Virus record (IMG/VR): IMGVR_UViG_2738541308_000001
Coordinates: 1-64,000 of that record
Reading direction: 5' to 3' (one strand)
Length of the DNA stretch: 64,000 bases
Origin: a virus
Lineage: Duplodnaviria; Caudoviricetes
In this document: in pieces, positions 1,192 to 57,633 of the stretch
How positions within the stretch are numbered: position 1 is the stretch's first letter
How the letters are laid out: the number at the start of each line of letters is the position of its first letter
Translations under genes and position numbers: made by a program
Notes under the pieces: model-generated
Databases searched by the model: none
What the model was told of the DNA's origin: nothing
The model's input: only the letters and a program-made list of their open reading frames with translations

Positions 1192-1558
1192 CGCTCTGTC
1201 GTTCGAGCTTGTGGCGGACGATGGCGCGGATCACCCGGTCGACGGTCTCTCGTTCGGTCGGGTCCAGCAGCATTGCCTCTGCCGGTGGCTCGTAGGGTGT
1301 CGGTTCGTCCCAACTGAGGTTGAGCCAGGAGGCGACCACCTGCGGTCGCTTCTTGAGTGCGGTGGCGATTTGGGTGATCGTTTCCATGTCAGGTAATCGG
1401 GTTCGGCCTTTGATCAGATTCGAGATCGTCGTCGCGTGCACGCCGGCCTTTTCGGCCAACCTGTTCAGCGATGCGCGTCCCGTCTGAGGGGATACTGCGC
1501 CGACATTCTCCATTGCACTTGCCCACGGTTCCGGTACGTCCATAGCTGCCATGTCCAC
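1184..1558 (-). CDS. XRE-family HTH immunity repressor
   Basis: SLNRLAEKAGVHATTISNLIKG HTH; divergent from cro, overlaps the integrase start. Confidence 0.85.
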   Translation of the reverse strand: MDMAAMDVPEPWASAMENVGAVSPQTGRASLNRLAEKAGVHATTISNLIKGRTRLPDMETITQIATALKKRPQVVASWLNLSWDEPTPYEPPAEAMLLDPTERETVDRVIRAIVRHKLERQSGG

Positions 1559-1732
1559 AATGATTCACTACTGGGTATTGGGTGCGCTAGTAGGGGTGTG
1601 GACACCGTGACCACAAATTACATGCCTGTAATTCCCTGAACAGCAGGTAAGCGGCATTTTGAAAAGCTGTCTTGTGGACAAGTGTGGACTAGATGTCTAG
1701 ACTGATGTTAGATAGTAGATGGCTGTCCACAA
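1552..1732. promoter_or_regulatory. Immunity control region (divergent promoters/operators)
   Basis: AT-richer intergenic region with repeated TGTGGAC/GTCCACA half-sites and TGTCTA-N9-TAGATA at 1694-1714. Confidence 0.7.
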
Positions 1733-2090
1733 GAAAACTACATTGGAACCGAGAGGGGAAACAGTGCACGCACTAGACGGAAGGTTGGATGTGAAACTCG
1801 AAAGTCGAGAGACGCTTATCCGGCTGATGAATCACTACAAATTCACCACCCGCAGTTTCGCTGAGGCTGTCAATACCGAACTGGCCCGGACTCATCGCGC
1901 GCTGCGCGGGGCGGGGGAGCCGATCACTACCTCCAAGACCGCAATCGGTTACCTCAGGTCGGGAGAGCGGCGCACGATCCGCATGGAGGTTGCGCAGGCA
2001 ATCGAAGTCGTTTTGCGTCAGGACCCGGGTGTACTTTTTGTACCCAAGGTGTCGCGTGTAGAGCGCGATACCAGACAGCTGGTCGCGTGA
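1719..2090 (+). CDS. Cro-like HTH regulator
   Basis: Divergent from the repressor; SKTAIGYLRSGER...AQAIEVVL HTH pattern. Confidence 0.75.
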   Translation: MAVHKKTTLEPRGETVHALDGRLDVKLESRETLIRLMNHYKFTTRSFAEAVNTELARTHRALRGAGEPITTSKTAIGYLRSGERRTIRMEVAQAIEVVLRQDPGVLFVPKVSRVERDTRQLVA

Positions 2091-11930: not shown

Positions 11931-12184
11931 GTGACAGTCGGCACGAATGGTCCGACCTTCGCCTCCGCATCCTCGCGCGTCTCGAACGCATGGACCCCTG
12001 GGACACGCAAGCCGAACAAGCCGTAACAGCGCTGAAAGATGTTATGGCACTGCATGAACCATGGCCTGAGCCCAGTGAACGGGCCTTCGTGAAACGAAAC
12101 GGCTGCCGGGCGTGCATGTGGCGGCGGCGCAAACGGGACTGCCCGACGGTCGTCGCCATCGGCAAAGCGCTCGGAATCACCTGA
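11927..12184 (+). CDS. Hypothetical protein
   Basis: LHEP...CRAC...CPTV motif. Confidence 0.6.
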   Translation: MSDSRHEWSDLRLRILARLERMDPWDTQAEQAVTALKDVMALHEPWPEPSERAFVKRNGCRACMWRRRKRDCPTVVAIGKALGIT

Positions 12185-12402
12185 CAGCAAGCACTTTTCA
12201 TTCACTCAGATGTCGAGTATCTAGGACGAAAGTAGACAACTATGGACTCAACTCGGACAGAGTTCGCACTCCGAACCGAGGTCGGCTCGATCTTCCCGAT
12301 GCTGTTCAGCACCCTCGAGGAAGCCCAAGCCGCAGCCCGATCCAGCGAGCGAAGCTTCGCGGTCGTGACGCGGACCGTCACGGAATGGGAAGAGGTCTCG
12401 CA

Positions 12403-13842
12403 ATGACGATCACCGTCACCGACCTGTTTTGCGGCGCAGGTGGATCGAGCACCGGCGCGACGCAAGTGCCTGGCGTCACGGTGCGTACGGCGGCGAACCA
12501 CTGGGAACTCGCGATCGAAACCCACAACACGAACCATCCGAACACAGATCACCAGTGTGCCGACCTTTCGCAGGTCGATCCTCGTCGGTTCCCTCGAACG
12601 ACGATCCTGTGGGGTTCGCCCGAATGCACGAACCATTCTCAGGCGAAGGGCGTCAAACGAAACCTCGACTCGACGCCGGACTTGTTCGGGGAGACGTTGC
12701 CCGACGCGGCTGCCGAACGATCCCGCGCAACGATGTGGGACATTCCACGGTTCGCCGAACATCACCGATACGAAGCGATCATCACCGAGAACGTCGTCGA
12801 CGCCGCGAAGTGGATCATGTTCCCCGCGTGGCTCCAAGCGATGGACCTCCTCGGATACAACCACCGGATCGTCTACATGAACTCGATGCACGCCCAGATC
12901 GGCGGACTTCCAGCTCCGCAATCAAGAGACAGGATGTATGTCGTGTTCTGGCTCAAGGGCAACCGCGCCCCGGACCTCGACAAGTGGACCCGACCGGAGG
13001 CGCACTGCTCGACCTGCGACGTCACCGTGACGGCAATCCAGGGCTGGAAGAAGTCAACCCAGTGGGGGCGCTACCGCTCGCAGTACCACTGGCGGTGCCC
13101 GAACGTGACGTGCCGCAACTCGATCGTCGAACCCCGTTGGCTCCCCGCTGCGTCGGCGATCGATTGGTCGATCATCGGGGAGCGAATCGGGGACAGAGCC
13201 AAGCCGTTGGCGCCGAAGACGTTGGCCCGGATCGAGGCCGGCTTGGCGAAGTACGCGGCACCATTCGTGCAACGCGCGTACACGCCGCGAAGCAACCTTG
13301 CGCAGATGTCGACGAGCACTGACGCCCACTTGCCGACGTTGACGGCATCAACCGTGCCAGCGCTGCTCGTGCCAGTGGAGGGTCGTGACGGGAAGCAAGC
13401 ACGGTCCGCGGCCGACCCGCTTCGTACGATGACAGCACGAAACGAAACTGCCGTCGCTTTCCTGTCGGTGATGCGCGGGCAGTCGAAGAATCATCATGTT
13501 GACGAACCGATTTCGACGGTGTCGGCAGGCGGAATCCACCACGCATTCGTCGTGCCGATGCGCAACAACAACACCGTGAAAGCGATCACCGATCCGCTCG
13601 ATACGTTCGCAGCAAACGGACTGCATCACGGACTGGCCAGTGCCGAGTCGCTGTCGGTCGACGACTGCTTGTTCCGGATGCTCGAACCGCACGAGATCGC
13701 AGCAGGAATGGCCTTCCCGTCGGACTACATGATCCTCGGCAACAAACGCGAACAGGTACGGCAGGCCGGAAACGCCGTGACGCCACCGGCCGCACGTGAC
13801 CTGATCGCGGCCGTCGCAGAATCGTTGGGGGTGGCGGCATGA
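12403..13842 (+). CDS. DNA (cytosine-5) methyltransferase
   Basis: DLFCGAGG (I), SPECTNHS (IV), ENV (VI), QSRDR (VIII), GNAVTPP (X). Confidence 0.92.
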   Translation: MTITVTDLFCGAGGSSTGATQVPGVTVRTAANHWELAIETHNTNHPNTDHQCADLSQVDPRRFPRTTILWGSPECTNHSQAKGVKRNLDSTPDLFGETLPDAAAERSRATMWDIPRFAEHHRYEAIITENVVDAAKWIMFPAWLQAMDLLGYNHRIVYMNSMHAQIGGLPAPQSRDRMYVVFWLKGNRAPDLDKWTRPEAHCSTCDVTVTAIQGWKKSTQWGRYRSQYHWRCPNVTCRNSIVEPRWLPAASAIDWSIIGERIGDRAKPLAPKTLARIEAGLAKYAAPFVQRAYTPRSNLAQMSTSTDAHLPTLTASTVPALLVPVEGRDGKQARSAADPLRTMTARNETAVAFLSVMRGQSKNHHVDEPISTVSAGGIHHAFVVPMRNNNTVKAITDPLDTFAANGLHHGLASAESLSVDDCLFRMLEPHEIAAGMAFPSDYMILGNKREQVRQAGNAVTPPAARDLIAAVAESLGVAA

Positions 13843-26680: not shown

Positions 26681-27087
26681 GGCTTCCAGTGGCCTTGTCA
26701 GTGACTGTCACTCACTGGCATGACCATAGTTTGCACTATGGGTGCATAGTCTGTCAACACTTGGGTTAGATCCCAGGTCAAGGGTGGTTTGTCATGCCCC
26801 CAGGTGGGAGCTAGGGGAGTGGCTACCCCCTGAGTGGTGGTCAGTATGGGCACTGCACTGGTGGCCCCCTGGTGGCCCCTGGGGGCTCAATTGCCCCTTG
26901 GGGTACCCAAGGGGGCAGGATGGCACTTTCTGGCCCCTTAAGGGCAAATAGGGGGCACTATGACCAAATAGCCAGAATTAGCCCTGAGGACTTGACACAC
27001 TATGCCCCCATAGTGTTACCTCAGTGCATGAAACCAGCTGCCCCACAACACAAAGGAGGTGAACCAATGACAATCAAACAACACCCC
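26681..27087. promoter_or_regulatory. Divergent promoter region 1, CpG-free, with CACTATG-N4-CATAGTG operators
   Basis: TTGACA on the - strand at 26752-26757 and on the + strand at 26992-26997, each abutting an 18-bp palindrome (26734-26751, 26998-27015). Confidence 0.8.
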
Positions 27088-51268: not shown

Positions 51269-52021
51269 TTACCCGATGGCCTGCCTTCCGGCGCCGACGC
51301 GGGTGTTCCCTACGTCGGCACGGTCACCTGCAGCATGGCCGGCTCGGTAACCTTCGCCGCGGCCGACGGAGCGCCCGCGACCCTGGCCGATCATTCCGGC
51401 GTACTTCTTGTACATCGCCGCCTGCGCTCGATCGAAGTCGCTCTTGAGCATCAGGGACGCTCCGGTGCCGCCGTTCTCACGGTCGTACGTCGACGCCGCA
51501 TTGTCCTCGCTCTCCTGGATACGAGAACCGATGCGGTCCGCGAACCCGATCATGAATTCCGCGCGGTGTTCGGCGGTGAGGCGGGCTGAATCCTTCGGAT
51601 CCCGTCCTGCGAACGGATTCGCTGGAATAGCTTGCGTTGCAGATGAAAGCAGCTGCGGCATCAGGAGTTGGATCAAGAACTTCACGCGCTCGAGATGACG
51701 GGACAGCCCGAAAATCTGCAACACATGCTCACCATGCAGTTGAACGGCGTCGCAATGCAGGGACTTGGATACGCGATTGACCAGATACATCTTCTCGTAG
51801 CCGAACCGGTCACCGGTGTAGGTGAACGTTACCGCCTTCATTGTGTCGCCATCCACGTTGCCGGAACCGGCAGAACCACGGGCCATTGCTTCGTCGATGC
51901 CGTACTTCGCCAGGAGTTCGAATGCCTTCTCGCGCAACGTATCGGCCTCGAGTGTACCTTCGACCGAATCCGCCTTTGCGAACAGACCCTTGATCCTGTT
52001 GAGCATCTTGTTGTCAACCAT
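51269..52021 (-). CDS. DUF2786 protein
   Basis: LNRIKGLFAKA...EA.....KA.ELLAKYGI. Confidence 0.85.
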   Translation of the reverse strand: MVDNKMLNRIKGLFAKADSVEGTLEADTLREKAFELLAKYGIDEAMARGSAGSGNVDGDTMKAVTFTYTGDRFGYEKMYLVNRVSKSLHCDAVQLHGEHVLQIFGLSRHLERVKFLIQLLMPQLLSSATQAIPANPFAGRDPKDSARLTAEHRAEFMIGFADRIGSRIQESEDNAASTYDRENGGTGASLMLKSDFDRAQAAMYKKYAGMIGQGRGRSVGRGEGYRAGHAAGDRADVGNTRVGAGRQAIG

Positions 52022-52144
52022 TGTGCGTGTCCTAACCTTTCGAGACTGAGGGTGAATTCCGAACGTCAGGGTGGGCACCGGGGACGGGTGCCCACCCTTG
52101 CTCCGGCGAGTGCCAGCTCGCCGGAGCCCACTGTCGAACGATGG

Positions 52145-52666
52145 TCACTCTTCGATGACTTCTTCTGCGGTGACTCCCGATTGGGGAGCGTCATCGCCGT
52201 CATCGTCGAGGTCGATGGTCTGCTGGCCGGCGTTCTTTCCGTCACCGATTGCCTTCTGCCGGCTCTTACGCTTCGGCTTTGGGGCCTCGATCGGATTGAA
52301 CATCCATTCAGCGGTGTGATTGCCCAGGTAGTTGATCAGCAGATCAGAACTCTTGAAGTCGATCGCTGCGCCGTCGGCGCCGATCTTCTTCTTGAGGTAC
52401 CCGGTTTGTTCTGCGATGCAGAACCATTCACCACCGACGTGTTCCCATACGAGTTGGATTTCACGGGCCTTACCTTCGGGAGATCCGTCGGCTTTGACCT
52501 TGTGTGCGCGGACGGTGATCCGCGCAACCACCTCGTTGACCACGCTGTGTTCGACGGTGTAACTCCAGCCCATGAGGAGCATCGCTCCGAGCACGTTCGT
52601 GAAGTCGTCCGGAAGGGTCTCAGTCTTGAAAACCGGGACATACGCTTCGGTGGACTTGCTGGACAT
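52145..52666 (-). CDS. Hypothetical protein
   Basis: ggaaagggg RBS; acidic tail. Confidence 0.7.
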   Translation of the reverse strand: MSSKSTEAYVPVFKTETLPDDFTNVLGAMLLMGWSYTVEHSVVNEVVARITVRAHKVKADGSPEGKAREIQLVWEHVGGEWFCIAEQTGYLKKKIGADGAAIDFKSSDLLINYLGNHTAEWMFNPIEAPKPKRKSRQKAIGDGKNAGQQTIDLDDDGDDAPQSGVTAEEVIEE

Positions 52667-52828
52667 AATGGTCCCCTTTCCGAGGGATCATCGGCAGCAA
52701 CACCATTGGGCATTGCTGCCTTGTGGTTGTGGGTGTCTCACGCTATTGAGTTCTCAAAGATCATGTGCTCGAGGGTTTCTCCCCTGGCCTATTCAGGGTT
52801 CCCAAGAGCCGGCATTCAGACTTGTGAC

Positions 52829-53352
52829 GATATGAAGTTGTTGGGACAGACCAACACTGAGGTTTTCCAGACTCTGAGCTGGTATCCAGATTGCTTGCCA
52901 GCTGGCCTGTGTTGCTGGCCCCTACTGGCTTGCTGATGCATAGTTTGCCCTATGGGGGCATAATCTGTCAACCCTGCAGGTGGGAGGCTATTTCTGGGGC
53001 AATTTATGGGCCTTGTTGACCTCTCAGGGCTGTGAACTGCCCCTTGGGCTGCACTGCACCACTGGCCAACCTCAGGGATGGGTGGTCCTGGCCCTGAGAT
53101 CAATTCTCAGAGCCTGTGAGTCACTATGGGTACATAGTGCCCAGAATGGCCCAAGGATTGCCCAGGGCCTCCCTCAGGGGCATTAATTGCAATAGTTGTA
53201 ACAGAGCTTGCACTATTGGGGCATAGTGACCTAATGTCAGGGGCACACCAGCTAGTCAAGCTGGCCCAGGGGGCAAGTGCCCCAGGGGAACATCCCAAAC
53301 CAGTGAGGTCACTCATGGGAGAACATCACCCAAATGTCACCACAGCCCAGCC
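52829..53352. promoter_or_regulatory. Divergent promoter region 2, CpG-free, with CACTATG-N4-CATAGTG operators
   Basis: TTGACA on the - strand at 52966-52971 abutting an operator at 52948-52965; further operators at 53122-53139 and 53211-53228. Confidence 0.8.
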
Positions 53353-53387
53353 GGCCCAACACCTCCCCAGCGAGACAGGGGAGTGAG

Positions 53388-53579
53388 ATGAAAAAGATCA
53401 GAGTCATCTGGGAAGAACACAGCACACACCAGCAGGAGTTCGACGTTCCGGACGACTTCGCAGTCGAACCACACGAAGAGGGATACGACCTCAGCAACGC
53501 GCTCGCCAGCCTCGTAGACGAGCGCGGCGACGGATTCCTGGGACTCGAACGCACCGTAATCGACGTGACCGAGCTATGA
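53388..53579 (+). CDS. Small acidic protein
   Basis: ggggag RBS. Confidence 0.6.
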   Translation: MKKIRVIWEEHSTHQQEFDVPDDFAVEPHEEGYDLSNALASLVDERGDGFLGLERTVIDVTEL

Positions 53580-53890
53580 GCGACCAAACGACAGTCGCCG
53601 TCATCGAATACACCGATCACCACGGTGAAGTCAGATACTTCGACGACGGAGTCTGGGCTGACATCGAACTACCGAGCATCCGTGCGCACGCCGGCAGATA
53701 CCTGTTCACCAACGAATCTCTCACCTGCACCGGCGACCACAAAAACGGAAGTTTCACCGTCGACTTCGGTGGCGGAGAAACGATTTGGTACGCATGGCGA
53801 CTGCTGACCCTCGACGCACAGGACGCCGCGAACACCAGAATCATCGGTTGCGATTCCGACGCGACTGTGACTGAACGGAGCACCACATGA
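53576..53890 (+). CDS. Hypothetical protein
   Basis: ATGA overlaps. Confidence 0.6.
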   Translation: MSDQTTVAVIEYTDHHGEVRYFDDGVWADIELPSIRAHAGRYLFTNESLTCTGDHKNGSFTVDFGGGETIWYAWRLLTLDAQDAANTRIIGCDSDATVTERSTT

Positions 53891-54654
53891 TCGAACTCGA
53901 CGGAATCACCCCGTCGAAGCAGATGCTCGACGACCTCGCAGCGGAAGGTCGACCCGTCATCCTCAACTTCTCCCGCGGCAAAGACTCAGTCGCCGTCTGG
54001 ATCGAACTCGAACGACGAAACATGCAGGTCATCCCGATCCACAAGTCGATCGTGCCGGGACTGAAGTTCGTCGAGGACGATCTCAAACGCTACGAAGACT
54101 ATTTTCAAACACATATCGTCGACCTGCCGGCAGATGCGTTCTACCGCATGCTCAACAACCTCACCTTCCAGCCGCCCGAACGCTGCGCGATCATCGAAGC
54201 TGCAGGATTCCCGTCGCCGACACGCGAAGAGTGGGACATGCTCATGCGCGACAACTTCGCCGAGGACGACACCTGGATCCTCGACGGCGTGCGGGCAACA
54301 GACTCCGCCCAAAGGCGAATGGCGATCATGCGCCACGGCCCGATCAAACACCGCACCCGACGCCAGTCCGTCATCTGGGACTGGGGCATCGCAGACGTGC
54401 GACGGGCGATCAAGGACCGCGGCATCACACTCGGCCCCGACTACGAGTGGTTCGGCAAATACCTCGCCGGAAAAGTGAACCCCAGACACAGAGGCGGGCT
54501 CGACGGCAACGGTCGGTCCTTCGACGGAATTCGCTACGACTTCCTCAAGCCGATCCGCGACCACGCCCCCGACGACTACCAGCGAATCCTGCACTGGTTC
54601 CCGCTGGCTGAACTCGAACTGATGAGAATGGACATGATCAATGGCTCTGTCTGA
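53887..54654 (+). CDS. PAPS-reductase-like PP-loop (adenine nucleotide alpha-hydrolase) protein
   Basis: NFSRGKDS PP-loop, GVRATDS..RR, IWDW, DYEWFG...RSFDGI. Confidence 0.85.
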   Translation: MIELDGITPSKQMLDDLAAEGRPVILNFSRGKDSVAVWIELERRNMQVIPIHKSIVPGLKFVEDDLKRYEDYFQTHIVDLPADAFYRMLNNLTFQPPERCAIIEAAGFPSPTREEWDMLMRDNFAEDDTWILDGVRATDSAQRRMAIMRHGPIKHRTRRQSVIWDWGIADVRRAIKDRGITLGPDYEWFGKYLAGKVNPRHRGGLDGNGRSFDGIRYDFLKPIRDHAPDDYQRILHWFPLAELELMRMDMINGSV

Positions 54655-55021
54655 CGAAGTGAAAGCAAAGCTCAAAGCCGGAGGCAATCGCGCGAAGTTC
54701 TCCCGCGCAGACGTCGTCTCCGCCTTGAAAGCGAAACCCCACCCCGACCCCCTCGCCGACGTCGAATACACCGACGACATCGAGCACGACACGAAGGCCG
54801 AACTCAACGCGCTCGGCAAAGGCTTGTCCGGAGCGTCGAAAGAGTGGGCTGAACAGTTCGGCCAGATGAACGACTCCGAGTACTGGGTCGCACTGTGCTT
54901 CAAGAACCGTGCAGCGAAAGATGCCTTCCTCGCCAGCGCCGGCGTGCTCGAACTAGGGGACAAGTACCTCGACGGTCACAAAGCCGCAGAGATCCTCGGA
55001 ATCGAATTCGAGGGCCGGTAA
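54641..55021 (+). CDS. Partner of the PP-loop protein
   Basis: DSEYWVALCF....KDAFL...GDKYLDG; overlaps the upstream gene. Confidence 0.7.
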   Translation: MALSDEVKAKLKAGGNRAKFSRADVVSALKAKPHPDPLADVEYTDDIEHDTKAELNALGKGLSGASKEWAEQFGQMNDSEYWVALCFKNRAAKDAFLASAGVLELGDKYLDGHKAAEILGIEFEGR

Positions 55022-55150: not shown

Positions 55151-55273
55151 ATGCGTAATGCAGCCCGTCGTCTCGGCCAGCGCATCTCCGGTGTTTTCAA
55201 CCGAATCACTGGCCGTAACCGCAACCGCACCGCCGCAAGCCCGGCAGCCGGTTCTCTCAGCGGTTCGACCTAA
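55151..55273 (+). CDS. 40-aa Arg-rich peptide
   Basis: Very strong RBS aggaaaggagggg before MRNAARRLGQRISGVFNRITGRNRNRTAASPAAGSLSGST. Confidence 0.6.
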   Translation: MRNAARRLGQRISGVFNRITGRNRNRTAASPAAGSLSGST

Positions 55274-55373
55274 GAGGTCAGGCGTTGGTCGCGTGCTTGA
55301 AATGTGCACCGACCGACGTCACAACCCGTCCCCACAACTGAACAATCGAGCCGACTCTGACGGGAGGGCCAAC

Positions 55374-55724
55374 ATGAGCAGCCCGGAGCTTTCCGTAGTT
55401 TCCCTGCGCCCCAACCACAAACCACCTGAGCCCACTTCATCGGACGCGCCACCGGAGACACCAGAGTGGCTGACCGACATCGGCAAACAGACGTGGGCAC
55501 GGTTGGCCCCCTTGTTCAATCTCACGCCCGCTGACATCGACGAATTCGCCGCCTACTGCGAGGCGATCGCCGAATATCAGGAATCGACCGTCATCATCGC
55601 CGAAGCTGGACTGCTCATCATCGACCCTGCGTCGGGCATGCCGATTCCGAACCCGATTCAGGCCGTTCGTGATCGAGCGGACCGCAAACTCGCATTTTGG
55701 GCCGGCCGCTTTCGAGGCGCGTGA
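55374..55724 (+). CDS. P27-family terminase small subunit-like
   Basis: PEWL...GKQTW.RLAP......D...AAYCEA...G.PIPNP. Confidence 0.7.
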   Translation: MSSPELSVVSLRPNHKPPEPTSSDAPPETPEWLTDIGKQTWARLAPLFNLTPADIDEFAAYCEAIAEYQESTVIIAEAGLLIIDPASGMPIPNPIQAVRDRADRKLAFWAGRFRGA

Positions 55725-55727
55725 TAC

Positions 55728-56366
55728 ATGGCTCCGCTTCCACCCGCGTCTCGATCGCGGACAACTCGCCCGAAGAAGGGCACGAAGAAGCCGGACCTCA
55801 CACAGGCTGAACGCGACAAGATCGCTGCGTTGCATGCACAGGGCAAGGGACGCAACGAGATAGCGCGCGAGATCGGCCGGTCCGCGTACTCGGTCACCAA
55901 GGTCGCCAAGGAACTCGGGCTTTCATTCGACGAAGCTGCGACGGTCGAAGCGACAGCCGCTCGCGTCGCGAAGATGAAGGCCCGCCGAGTCGACCTCGCC
56001 GAGCAACTTCTCGACGACGTCGTCAAGCTCCGTGAGCGCCTGTGGTCCCCACACAACTACTACGAACGCGGCCAGGACGCCATGATCCCGGTGACCTTGC
56101 CGCTGCCCCCGCTGCGCGACGCCCGCGACGGCTACGCCGCACTGCAGATCGCGCTTAAAGGCCACATGGATCTCATTGCTGGCTCTACCGATTCGTCGGT
56201 CGAGGACAAGCGGTCCGTGCTCGCCAATCTCATCGATCGCATCAAGACGGTCGTCGACGAGGACAAGAAGAACGGTGCGCCGCCGCCGGACACATCAGTG
56301 CCCGTCAACGACGAAGCCGGTACCGCCGCAGAGCAGAAGGAGGTGGCGGGTGACGACGTTCAATGA
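55728..56366 (+). CDS. HTH terminase small subunit
   Basis: LHAQGKGRNEIAREIGRS; directly upstream of TerL. Confidence 0.75.
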   Translation: MAPLPPASRSRTTRPKKGTKKPDLTQAERDKIAALHAQGKGRNEIAREIGRSAYSVTKVAKELGLSFDEAATVEATAARVAKMKARRVDLAEQLLDDVVKLRERLWSPHNYYERGQDAMIPVTLPLPPLRDARDGYAALQIALKGHMDLIAGSTDSSVEDKRSVLANLIDRIKTVVDEDKKNGAPPPDTSVPVNDEAGTAAEQKEVAGDDVQ

Positions 56367-57633
56367 CCTGCCACTGTCGCGGAAGCAGCTCTACTCGATA
56401 GCCGAGGCCGAAGCCCGCATCAACATCTGGGAAGGCGCAATCCGGTCCGGAAAGACCTTCGGCTCGATGATGCGGTGGCTGATGTTCTTGTCGAACCCGC
56501 CAGGGGGCGGACAGTTCGTCATGGTCGGGCGTACCCGCGAATCCCTCGCTCGCAACGTTATCTCACCGATGCAGGATCCCGACATCTTCGGGGAATTCGC
56601 CGACACCGTCCACTACGTCACAGGCGCGCCGTCTGCGACGATCCTGGGTCGCCGCGTCTACATGCTCGGTGCGTCGGACGCGAAGGCGGAGAAGTCCCTT
56701 CGAGGGCTCACCGTTGCCGGTGCCTACGCCGACGAAATCACCGTTATCCGGTCGGACTTCTTCCATCAGCTACTCGGTCGTATGTCTGTCACCGGCGCGA
56801 AGTTGTTCGGAACGACGAACCCCGACAACCCGATGCACTGGCTCAAGGCCGAGTATCTCGACCGACTGCATGAGCTTCCAGACTGGCGCAGTTGGCATTT
56901 CACGCTCGACGACAACCCTGCATTGTCCGAGGACTACAAGAACTCGATCAAGCGCGAGTACACAGGCCTCTGGTACCGCCGCTTCATCCTCGGTCACTGG
57001 GTCGCAGCGGACGGCGCCGTCTACGACATGTGGGAGCCGTCCAAGCACGTCGTGCGGTGGCAGGACCTACCGCAGATGGTGGAACTGTTCGGCGTCGGAG
57101 TGGATTACGGCACCACGAATCCCACCGTGGCGTTGTTGCTCGGCGTGGGTGCCGACGGCGTGCTTTACCTGATCGACGAATGGTCGTACACGCCACGATC
57201 GGACGCCACCCGATGGACCGACGCGCAACTTTCCCGCGGCCTGCGTGACTGGCTCGCGGAAGGTCACCTGCCGTACCCGACGCGAATGCCTCCCGGGCCG
57301 GTCATCGTCGACCCCGCTGCGGCGTCGTTCCGGGTTCAGCTCCTCCAGGACGAACTCCCGACGTATGCGGCCGAAAACGATGTGCTGTATGGGATTCGGA
57401 CCATCGCAACGTTGCTCTCGACTGGAAAGCTGAAGGTCACCGATCGCTGCAAGACCTTCATGACCGAGGTCGCCGGTTACTCGTGGGACACGCAAGCAAC
57501 ATCCGAGGGCTACGACCAGCCCATTAAGTCTGCGGATCACGCGCTCGACGCTGCCCGCTACGCCATCGTCACCACCGAAAAGCGGTGGCGGCGCTACGTC
57601 GATGTGAACGGAGGCGAGTATGCCGCTTCCTGA
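56350..57633 (+). CDS. terL: Terminase large subunit (PBSX-type)
   Basis: EGAIRSGKT, ADEIT, TTNPD, VDYGTTNP, DHALDAARY. Confidence 0.95.
   Translation: MTTFNDLPLSRKQLYSIAEAEARINIWEGAIRSGKTFGSMMRWLMFLSNPPGGGQFVMVGRTRESLARNVISPMQDPDIFGEFADTVHYVTGAPSATILGRRVYMLGASDAKAEKSLRGLTVAGAYADEITVIRSDFFHQLLGRMSVTGAKLFGTTNPDNPMHWLKAEYLDRLHELPDWRSWHFTLDDNPALSEDYKNSIKREYTGLWYRRFILGHWVAADGAVYDMWEPSKHVVRWQDLPQMVELFGVGVDYGTTNPTVALLLGVGADGVLYLIDEWSYTPRSDATRWTDAQLSRGLRDWLAEGHLPYPTRMPPGPVIVDPAAASFRVQLLQDELPTYAAENDVLYGIRTIATLLSTGKLKVTDRCKTFMTEVAGYSWDTQATSEGYDQPIKSADHALDAARYAIVTTEKRWRRYVDVNGGEYAAS

Follow-up and report, generated by a model that had tools for sequence, protein, structure and literature searches.

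We analyzed a 64,000-nucleotide stretch of DNA (the window), which forms the first 64 kb of an 84,259-bp provirus in IMG/VR (record IMGVR_UViG_2738541308_000001), with a focus on a region at 52829–53352, here called desert 2, where 524 bp at 55% G+C contain no CG dinucleotide. Desert 2 is non-coding DNA between two divergent operons. The leftward operon opens with the gene for p173, followed by a DUF2786 gene and further small genes. The rightward operon holds, in order, two small acidic genes, the gene for a phosphoadenosine phosphosulfate (PAPS)-reductase-like PP-loop protein, a gene for a 126-residue partner, terS, a gene for a helix-turn-helix (HTH) protein, terL, and the portal and subsequent genes; terS lies at least 1.8 kb from desert 2. 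The genome is syntenic with that of Gordonia phage VanLee, but the record begins at the integrase. An earlier note on this DNA, made by a model from the letters alone, had described a CG-free interval flanked by a leftward operon including DUF2786 and a rightward operon leading to the PP-loop and terminase genes. Gene order confirms the flanks, and a CG scan confirms the interval, with bounding CGs at 52828–29 and 53352–53.

Composition and anatomy of the CG-free zones

The local base composition predicts 39.8 CG in desert 2, for which the Poisson chance of finding none is about e^-40 (arithmetic on the expected count). A further zone of the same design, desert 1 (Table 1), has 0 CG where 31.9 are expected. 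The next-longest CG gaps in the whole record are 98, 76 and 70 bp, and CG is over-represented genome-wide with an observed/expected ratio (o/e) of 1.23. Chance is thus rejected by zero CG against about 40 and 32 expected and by a next gap of only 98 bp, and the claim that two such deserts are beyond chance stands. So does the claim that they are not simple duplicates: only a 33-bp element and a set of palindromes are common to both, by which duplication of desert 1 is rejected as the origin of desert 2. TG and CA occur in desert 2 at 1.58 and 1.63 times expectation (1.55–1.63 across the deserts examined). Since forbidding CG alone predicts a roughly 1.4-fold excess of all dinucleotides with C first or G last, most of this excess follows arithmetically from CG exclusion and there is no clear deamination signature. 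Across 5.7 kb of pooled deserts, every other 2-, 3- and 4-mer is represented, and the helical periodicity of GG/CC, TG/CA and A/T gives only weak signals at lag 10–11.

The 33-bp element, in which TTGACA is followed by a palindrome, is identical at 30 of 33 positions between the two deserts, as the earlier note had seen. A palindrome of the type CACTATG-N4-CATAGTG (7-4-7) is present in three copies per desert, and all six lie inside the deserts in a scan of the whole genome, where the matches outside are two scattered look-alikes with three mismatches each. One copy per desert stands behind a leftward TTGACA, and another lies in a rightward promoter-like site. Both deserts sit between divergent operons, in line with the earlier note, and carry a common TTGACA-plus-palindrome element found only there. 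The distance between the outer repeat units is 263 bp in desert 2 and 264 bp in desert 1, a spacing that suggests a single dimeric or tetrameric regulator, possibly with looping. Short words are also enriched: GGGGCA/TGCCCC occurs 14 times versus 2.7 in shuffles, and CTCAGGG/CCCTGAG six times versus 0.45. RNA-library contigs (X15 and X16) cover desert 2 at a depth of 3–8, and one 821-nt contig crosses 52612–53430; the contigs show neither transcript starts nor strand, and carry-over of DNA may account for them. Judged from the arrangement of these motifs, the label "promoter/operator" is reasonable but unproven for either desert.

Conservation, maintenance and confinement of CG absence

Relatives that share the divergent arrangement of p173 and the PAPS-reductase-like gene all have a region without CG, or almost without it, at this place. 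In VanLee, the syntenic desert is a CG-free stretch of 340 bp with 68% G+C and consists mostly of GCCACCAGG/GTGGCCACCAGG units, 9 and 12 bp long, in tandem array. In the Morgana group (Morgana, Aleemily and Cafasso), the region measures about 600–720 bp in all with only two CGs interrupting. Morgana has runs of 388, 164 and 123 bp, broken by only 2 CG, Aleemily of 466 and 206 bp, and Cafasso of 389 and 206 bp; the interrupting CGs of Morgana and Aleemily fall in the spacer of a palindrome of the same kind, downstream of TTGACA. Six of the eight IMG/VR loci retrieved by a PAPS-reductase-like alignment query contain 203–372 bp without CG directly upstream of the PAPS-reductase-like gene; IMG/VR queries with p173, with the single PAPS-reductase-like protein and with the 33-bp pattern found no close relatives. 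In GTDB genomes, each of the 13 Nocardia prophage loci has a CG-free run of 203–393 bp that ends 30–165 bp before the same gene. Over the 672 bp compared, five of these 13 match IMG/VR loci exactly, so that 14 distinct sequences remain among the 19 of Nocardia type. L033, a 3.8-kb contig of a GTDB genome (3825 bp) with 99% identity, contains 525 bp without CG.

Scans of whole records found exactly one major desert each, at this place, in VanLee, Morgana, Aleemily, Cafasso and two partial proviruses. The three Morgana-group phages have, in addition, a second CG-free divergent intergenic region of 176–179 bp, which in Morgana and Aleemily contains CCCCTGGTGGGC, a CATAGTG half-site and the extended -10-like site TGGCATAAT, words that are also those of the main desert. 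This small region parallels desert 1 of the window. As a separate observation on VanLee, its gp163, annotated as "membrane protein" (record 82424–82726; L004:37424–37726), overlies the GCCACCAGG-type tandem array and is probably not a gene.

Homologous deserts are only 60–84% identical, with 62–118 substitutions per pair in nine pairwise comparisons. When the observed substitutions were placed at random with the same spectrum, the simulated sequences contained on average 9.5–24.4 CG versus 1–3 observed, all of which pre-existed, and across the nine comparisons none of 2000 runs gave a count as low. Point substitutions in the well-aligned pairs (81–84% identity) also make no CG. Among near-identical strain contigs from public runs, none of 18 listed desert substitutions creates a CG, as 18–20% of possible ones would; this count refers to the 18 listed positions, a further 101 differences being unlisted. 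Conservation in the Nocardia alignment is lowest within the desert (column identity 0.63–0.75, 0 CG per sequence) and reaches about 0.9 in the adjacent leader; the desert is flanked by this CG-containing structured leader at the left and by a short CG-containing stretch starting with GCCGGCC at the right. These sequence comparisons show that the absence of CG is actively maintained during fast sequence turnover.

Outside the deserts, CG is not avoided. At synonymous third positions of 30 confident genes of the window genome, C is used at 0.82 before G and at 0.92, 0.79 and 0.68 before A, T and C, respectively, and xCG codons make up 0.37 of the four-fold families with C in second position. The lack of CG loss at synonymous sites rejects genome-wide CG hypermutability. 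In VanLee, 22 other intergenic regions of at least 100 bp have a CG o/e of 1.10 overall (range 0.72–1.41), with 0.94 for the immunity switch, by which CG loss as a general trait of the non-coding or regulatory DNA of the lineage is rejected for this phage. The same data contradict, in VanLee, the proposal of the earlier note that CG absence licenses promoters in general: the immunity switch and 21 other intergenic regions are normal. The genomic comparisons thus show a pressure that acts on this type of locus only, sparing genes and other intergenic DNA.

The deserts are also confined to few phages. In 14 other high-G+C actinophages, the largest CG gaps are 49–111 bp: 49–111 bp in Giles, Bxb1, phiC31, Che9c and L5; 57–66 bp in CaiB, NHagos, Yago84 and Jace; and 58–69 bp in the integrase-bearing Powerball, Suerte, BetterKatz, Yeezy and Mbo4. 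All nine phages of Gordonia or Rhodococcus hosts among them stay within 57–69 bp; six of these nine are temperate or integrase-bearing, and CaiB, NHagos, Powerball and Suerte were isolated on the same Gordonia rubripertincta strain as VanLee and Morgana. A relative of the PAPS-reductase-like gene was sought with the PF01507 profile in five of the 14 and with the window's own protein in the other nine, and none was found, with one weak partial match in Suerte (E 4.9e-5). The earlier note had held that its idea would fall if deserts were equally common in phages lacking a modification gene; these 14 phages, without a PAPS-reductase-like relative, have no desert, an outcome in favor of the deserts being something special. 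None of 25 IMG/VR relatives found via TerL has the PAPS-reductase-like gene, its partner, p173 or DUF2786 within 6 kb; the largest gaps are 28–70 bp in the seven with at least 57% G+C, and the other 18 are A+T-rich, with gaps that carry at most 6.4 expected CG. At the level of the genomes compared, these results show that the desert is specific to this Gordonia/Nocardia temperate phage lineage. A literature search at listing and abstract level found no description of CG-free regions in actinophages.

Possible causes of CG exclusion

We favor, with a probability of roughly 45%, the explanation that purifying selection removes CG from a control hub, via a factor that is encoded by the lineage and acts on CG there. 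Desert 2 would be the core of the phage's main lytic control region, in which TTGACA-type promoter elements overlapped by the 7-4-7 palindrome may act as a promoter/operator hub. A lineage-encoded factor that marks or binds CG would disturb a regulatory (or packaging) nucleoprotein complex on the desert DNA, and every new CG would be removed by purifying selection. The conserved genes around the desert would be the obvious candidates for this factor; apart from structural and packaging genes, all five relatives compared have only four in common, those for the PAPS-reductase-like protein, its partner, p173 and the DUF2786 protein. Divergent early control regions are well known from L5 Pleft with its repressor sites and from the looping OL/OR of lambda, and the desert resembles them in its divergent operons, in the combination of a strong, -35-like TTGACA with an overlapping repeated palindrome and in sites spaced about 263 bp apart. 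As expected for a temperate control region, it lies between divergent operons and its palindromes are confined to the deserts. We know of no such control region that excludes a dinucleotide, and L5, unlike the desert-bearing phages, has a largest CG gap of 80 bp (50 kb examined).

Several points weigh against this explanation. A consensus promoter scan returned one site in desert 2 and none in desert 1, and because it is nearly empty the promoter reading rests on TTGACA and position. All recognizable motifs together cover an estimated one quarter of desert 2, so that protein sites alone fail to explain the CG-free remainder. The VanLee array, built from a CG-free 9–12-bp unit, by itself needs no anti-CG selection. 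Finally, selection is not formally distinguishable from a hypermutation of CG restricted to this locus.

If selection truly forbids CG here, these phages contain something that reads CG in double-stranded DNA at this site; an enzyme that modifies DNA, a nuclease or an architectural protein could be that reader. To our knowledge, actinophages have no known CG reader of this kind. Four of the desert-bearing phages (VanLee, Morgana, Aleemily and Cafasso) are in culture on a harmless laboratory strain of Gordonia, and the candidate genes are only four; selection through a CG reader predicts a fitness cost of added CGs unless the reader is removed. Even with a trivial cause, the desert marks the main lytic control hub of the lineage and corrects the likely spurious "membrane protein" annotation in VanLee.

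A special case of this explanation names the writer: the PAPS-reductase-like enzyme and its 126-residue partner, from the late operon, would write a covalent CG mark on virion DNA before packaging, and the hub would be CG-free so that its promoters and operators act alike whether the DNA is marked, as on entry, or unmarked, as in the prophage. Immediately downstream of the desert, the enzyme pair is found in the window phage, VanLee and all Nocardia-type relatives, and it belongs to the small set of shared genes named above, whereas TerL/HTH relatives without these genes lack a desert (gaps of 40–70 bp at 58–70% G+C in L115, L116, L117 and L138). The enzyme matches PHROG 2302 (E 1.9e-20), in a fold family that includes the DNA-sulfur enzymes DndC and SspD; Pfam PF01507, however, does not reach E 0.01. 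As for the companions known from Dnd/Ssp phosphorothioation (DndA/D/E, SspA/B/C), only the family-less 126-residue partner was seen beside the enzyme, no search aimed at companions having been made. Where the enzyme occurs in another layout, moreover, the desert is missing: L014 and L015 (56% identity) have maxima of 98 and 78 bp, against 48 bp in the rest of the contig, Bifidobacterium phage BigBern1 has a largest gap of 110 bp, and the only gap in Cutibacterium phage CA1NRNZ is AT-rich (32% G+C, 5.8 CG expected). The other control regions of VanLee, the immunity switch and 21 intergenic regions, are normal in CG, which implies that regulatory DNA in general dodges no mark. The tie of the PP-loop genes to the desert drawn in the earlier note is therefore circumstantial: it holds in every relative with the divergent layout and fails in the other layouts. 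We consider it unlikely that the pair writes its own mark in this way, and distinctly doubtful that the lineage encodes an undescribed CG-directed DNA chemistry in which the PP-loop pair marks virion CpG, in the backbone or the base, and leaves the hub CG-free. If true, PP-loop marking would turn round, in a bacterial virus, the logic of the "CpG island".

The C5 cytosine methyltransferase of the window, also linked to the deserts in the earlier note, is rejected as the cause. PF00145 is absent from all ten relatives' records searched, namely the complete, desert-bearing VanLee, Morgana and Aleemily and seven further records; four of the ten are complete (these three and a desert-free Cutibacterium phage) and six incomplete or partial, and the search covered phage records, not host enzymes. 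The only solved relative of the methyltransferase matched at E 7e-4 over 59 residues, from which its specificity could not be read. This enzyme was also part of the case for mutational decay, in which methylation and deamination of CpG in unconstrained DNA would have emptied the deserts. The window phage does have a C5-methyltransferase, and missing CG with extra TG and CA (1.55–1.63 times expectation) is the pattern of vertebrate-type CpG depletion. However, CG exclusion alone gives a CA/TG excess of about 1.4-fold, synonymous sites show no CG loss, other non-coding DNA of VanLee is at o/e 1.10, and, unlike in vertebrate-type depletion, there is neither a genome-wide deficit nor a methyltransferase in the relatives, three of them complete and desert-bearing. 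Decay is largely refuted and hardly credible. A by-product of CG-free repeat units or of A+T-richer promoter DNA would fit the VanLee array, the short tandem duplications in desert 1 and Morgana, and a G+C content of the deserts 6–15 points below that of their own genomes. Against this, 30–40 CG are still expected at 51–59% G+C, recognizable motifs cover only about one quarter of the region, and the point substitutions of the well-aligned pairs likewise create no CG; the explanation is weakened, and we give it only a slender chance.

Avoidance of a host factor of Gordonia or Nocardia, be it a restriction enzyme, a methyltransferase or some other defence that reads CG, would fit the presence of CG in most classical Nocardia restriction sites. 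As in restriction-site or oligonucleotide avoidance by phages, a short word would be kept out of phage DNA by selection, but the known cases are genome-wide and concern 4–6-bp palindromes matched to host enzymes, whereas here a dinucleotide is missing from one or two non-coding regions. Such avoidance would deplete the whole genome, although CG is abundant here (o/e 1.23; third-position C at 0.82 before G), synonymous sites included, even though a cut anywhere would be lethal. It would also be shared by phages of the same host, yet there is no desert in CaiB, NHagos, Powerball and Suerte from the same strain or in Yago84, BetterKatz, Yeezy, Jace and Mbo4 from the same genera (9 of 9). A host-imposed pressure is thereby weakened, and we hold it to be very improbable. 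Packaging offers a further alternative. The desert could be a pac landing pad, an array of weak binding words for TerS or the HTH protein with cutting or loading at the border GCCGGCC; CG would be kept out of the pad to prevent cutting or binding within it. Known pac regions have repeated TerS-binding words, as in pacL/pacR of SPP1, or methylation-sensitive hexamers, as in P1; the desert is likewise a non-coding, repeat-bearing region upstream of terS, and P1 shows that base modification can gate packaging. The terS-HTH-terL module lies downstream of the desert in all relatives, the right border keeps a conserved GCCGGCC, the VanLee array has 27 CCWGG cores in 9- and 12-bp units averaging about one helical turn, and the repeated words differ between sublineages, as expected of co-evolving sites; near the terminase genes they are clear in VanLee and Morgana and weak in the window. 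The desert is, however, at least 1.8 kb from terS, unlike in SPP1 and P1, and nine small genes separate it from the PAPS-reductase-like and terS genes in the Morgana group; a second desert is found elsewhere in the genome, 26 kb away in the window phage and, as a small one, far from the terminase genes in three Morgana-group phages; and CG-specific cutting by a terminase is pure conjecture. A pac function appears improbable to us. The earlier note suggested that desert 2 may lie near the pac site and the first-injected end. VanLee packages by headful, as would suit a pac function, and its genome is circularly permuted (PMC8320454), which means that there is no fixed genome end; a T5-like first-step transfer involves a fixed first-entering end, whereas the present record is a provirus.

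Feature coordinates and minor observations

The coordinates of the deserts, their motifs and the flanking genes are collected in Table 1.

Table 1. Features in and around the CG-free zones (window coordinates unless a phage is named)
Feature	Position	Strand	Remark
CG-free zone 2 (desert 2)	52829..53352	none	524 bp, 55% G+C, 0 CG
CG-free zone 1 (desert 1)	26681..27087	none	407 bp, 56% G+C, 0 CG
33-bp element, promoter-like with operator	52939..52971	-	TTGACA then palindrome; no consensus -10 found by scan
33-bp element, copy in zone 1	26725..26757	-	30/33 identical
Operator-like palindrome, CACTATG-N4-CATAGTG type	52948..52965		3 mismatches
Palindrome CACTATG-N4-CATAGTG	53122..53139		perfect
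Palindrome within rightward promoter-like site	53211..53228		1 mismatch; repeat unit 263 bp from left copy
Zone 1 palindrome	26734..26751		1 mismatch
Zone 1 palindrome after TTGACA, rightward	26998..27015		perfect; 264 bp from 26734
Leader of leftward operon	52667..52828	-	5 CG; by-eye partial alignment to structured leader of Nocardia prophages
GCCGGCC	53350..53356		first CG at right border; same word at border in VanLee and Nocardia prophages
p173, first leftward gene	52145..52666	-	173 aa, acidic tail, no family match
DUF2786 protein gene	51269..52078	-	
Two small acidic genes, head of rightward operon	53388..53890	+	63 and 104 aa
PAPS-reductase-like PP-loop protein	53887..54654	+	PHROG 2302, E 1.9e-20
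Conserved 126-aa partner	54641..55021	+	no family match; poor structure model
terS, HTH protein, terL	55158..57633	+	
C5 cytosine methyltransferase	12112..13842	+	rejected as cause
Second small CG-free region	Morgana 70079-70258; Aleemily 67015-67191; Cafasso 67620-67798		

The PAPS-reductase-like protein has FSRGKDS at the position expected for a PP-loop, and a comparison with Pfam PF01507 gave nothing at E 0.01 or better. For the 126-residue partner, no Pfam match was obtained with any of 15 members, and the AlphaFold model, with a mean predicted local distance difference test (pLDDT) score of 56, is too poor for a fold search. The leader of the leftward gene (L034:4345–4641, minus strand, and 13 other Nocardia-type loci; in part window 52667–52828) spans about 300 nt and is about 90% conserved, better than the neighbouring proteins. 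Its predicted fold consists of several helices with 74 pairs, 12 of which show compensatory changes, and includes one hairpin that precedes a T-rich run, some 50 nt upstream of the start codon. The leader has no Rfam match; from its conservation and predicted fold, it may be an undescribed cis-regulatory RNA. An Rfam search of L001, L008 and L013 gave no match at E 1 or better.

At the right border, GCCGGCC in VanLee (record ~82665–82690) forms an inverted repeat, perfect over 9 bp, TGCCGGCCA ... TGGCCGGCA. For the GCCGGCC of the Nocardia loci (alignment columns 727–745), a possible pairing partner is the GCCGG that immediately precedes the GTG start codon of the PAPS-reductase-like gene. Desert 1 has TTGTCAGTG at its left edge (26692–26700). 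This word resembles the -35-like part of the RecA-independent (PafBC) promoter motif for DNA damage in mycobacteria, but the TANNNT expected 8 nt downstream is absent. The immunity switch of the window (1537–1750) has a 160-bp intergenic part with 3 CG versus 7.8 expected at 46% G+C, a mild depletion.

CTGGTG(G)/CCACCAG words, which resemble the E. coli Chi octamer, are numerous in L006:4698–5373 (Morgana; 18 copies versus 2.2 in shuffles) and L007:4712–5432 (Aleemily); they may be Chi-like words or protein-binding ones. CTGG/CCAG words point outward from the center of the region, clearly in Morgana and Aleemily and weakly in the window, and are without such polarity in the Nocardia relatives. 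A tRNA-like stretch, consisting of a T-arm and an acceptor end, lies beside the deserts of Morgana (L006:4640–4680) and Aleemily (L007:4350–4380); ARAGORN found no tRNA gene in L006 4300–5700, and the stretch may be a fragment or an att-like remnant. The assembly to which the short contig L033 belongs, with its 99%-identical desert and PAPS-reductase-like gene, is labelled Streptomyces sp. Finally, 20 public runs, among them soil, wastewater, biofilm and gut metagenomes, hold 24–100% of the words sampled from this stretch, which indicates that the phage or its close kin are widespread.

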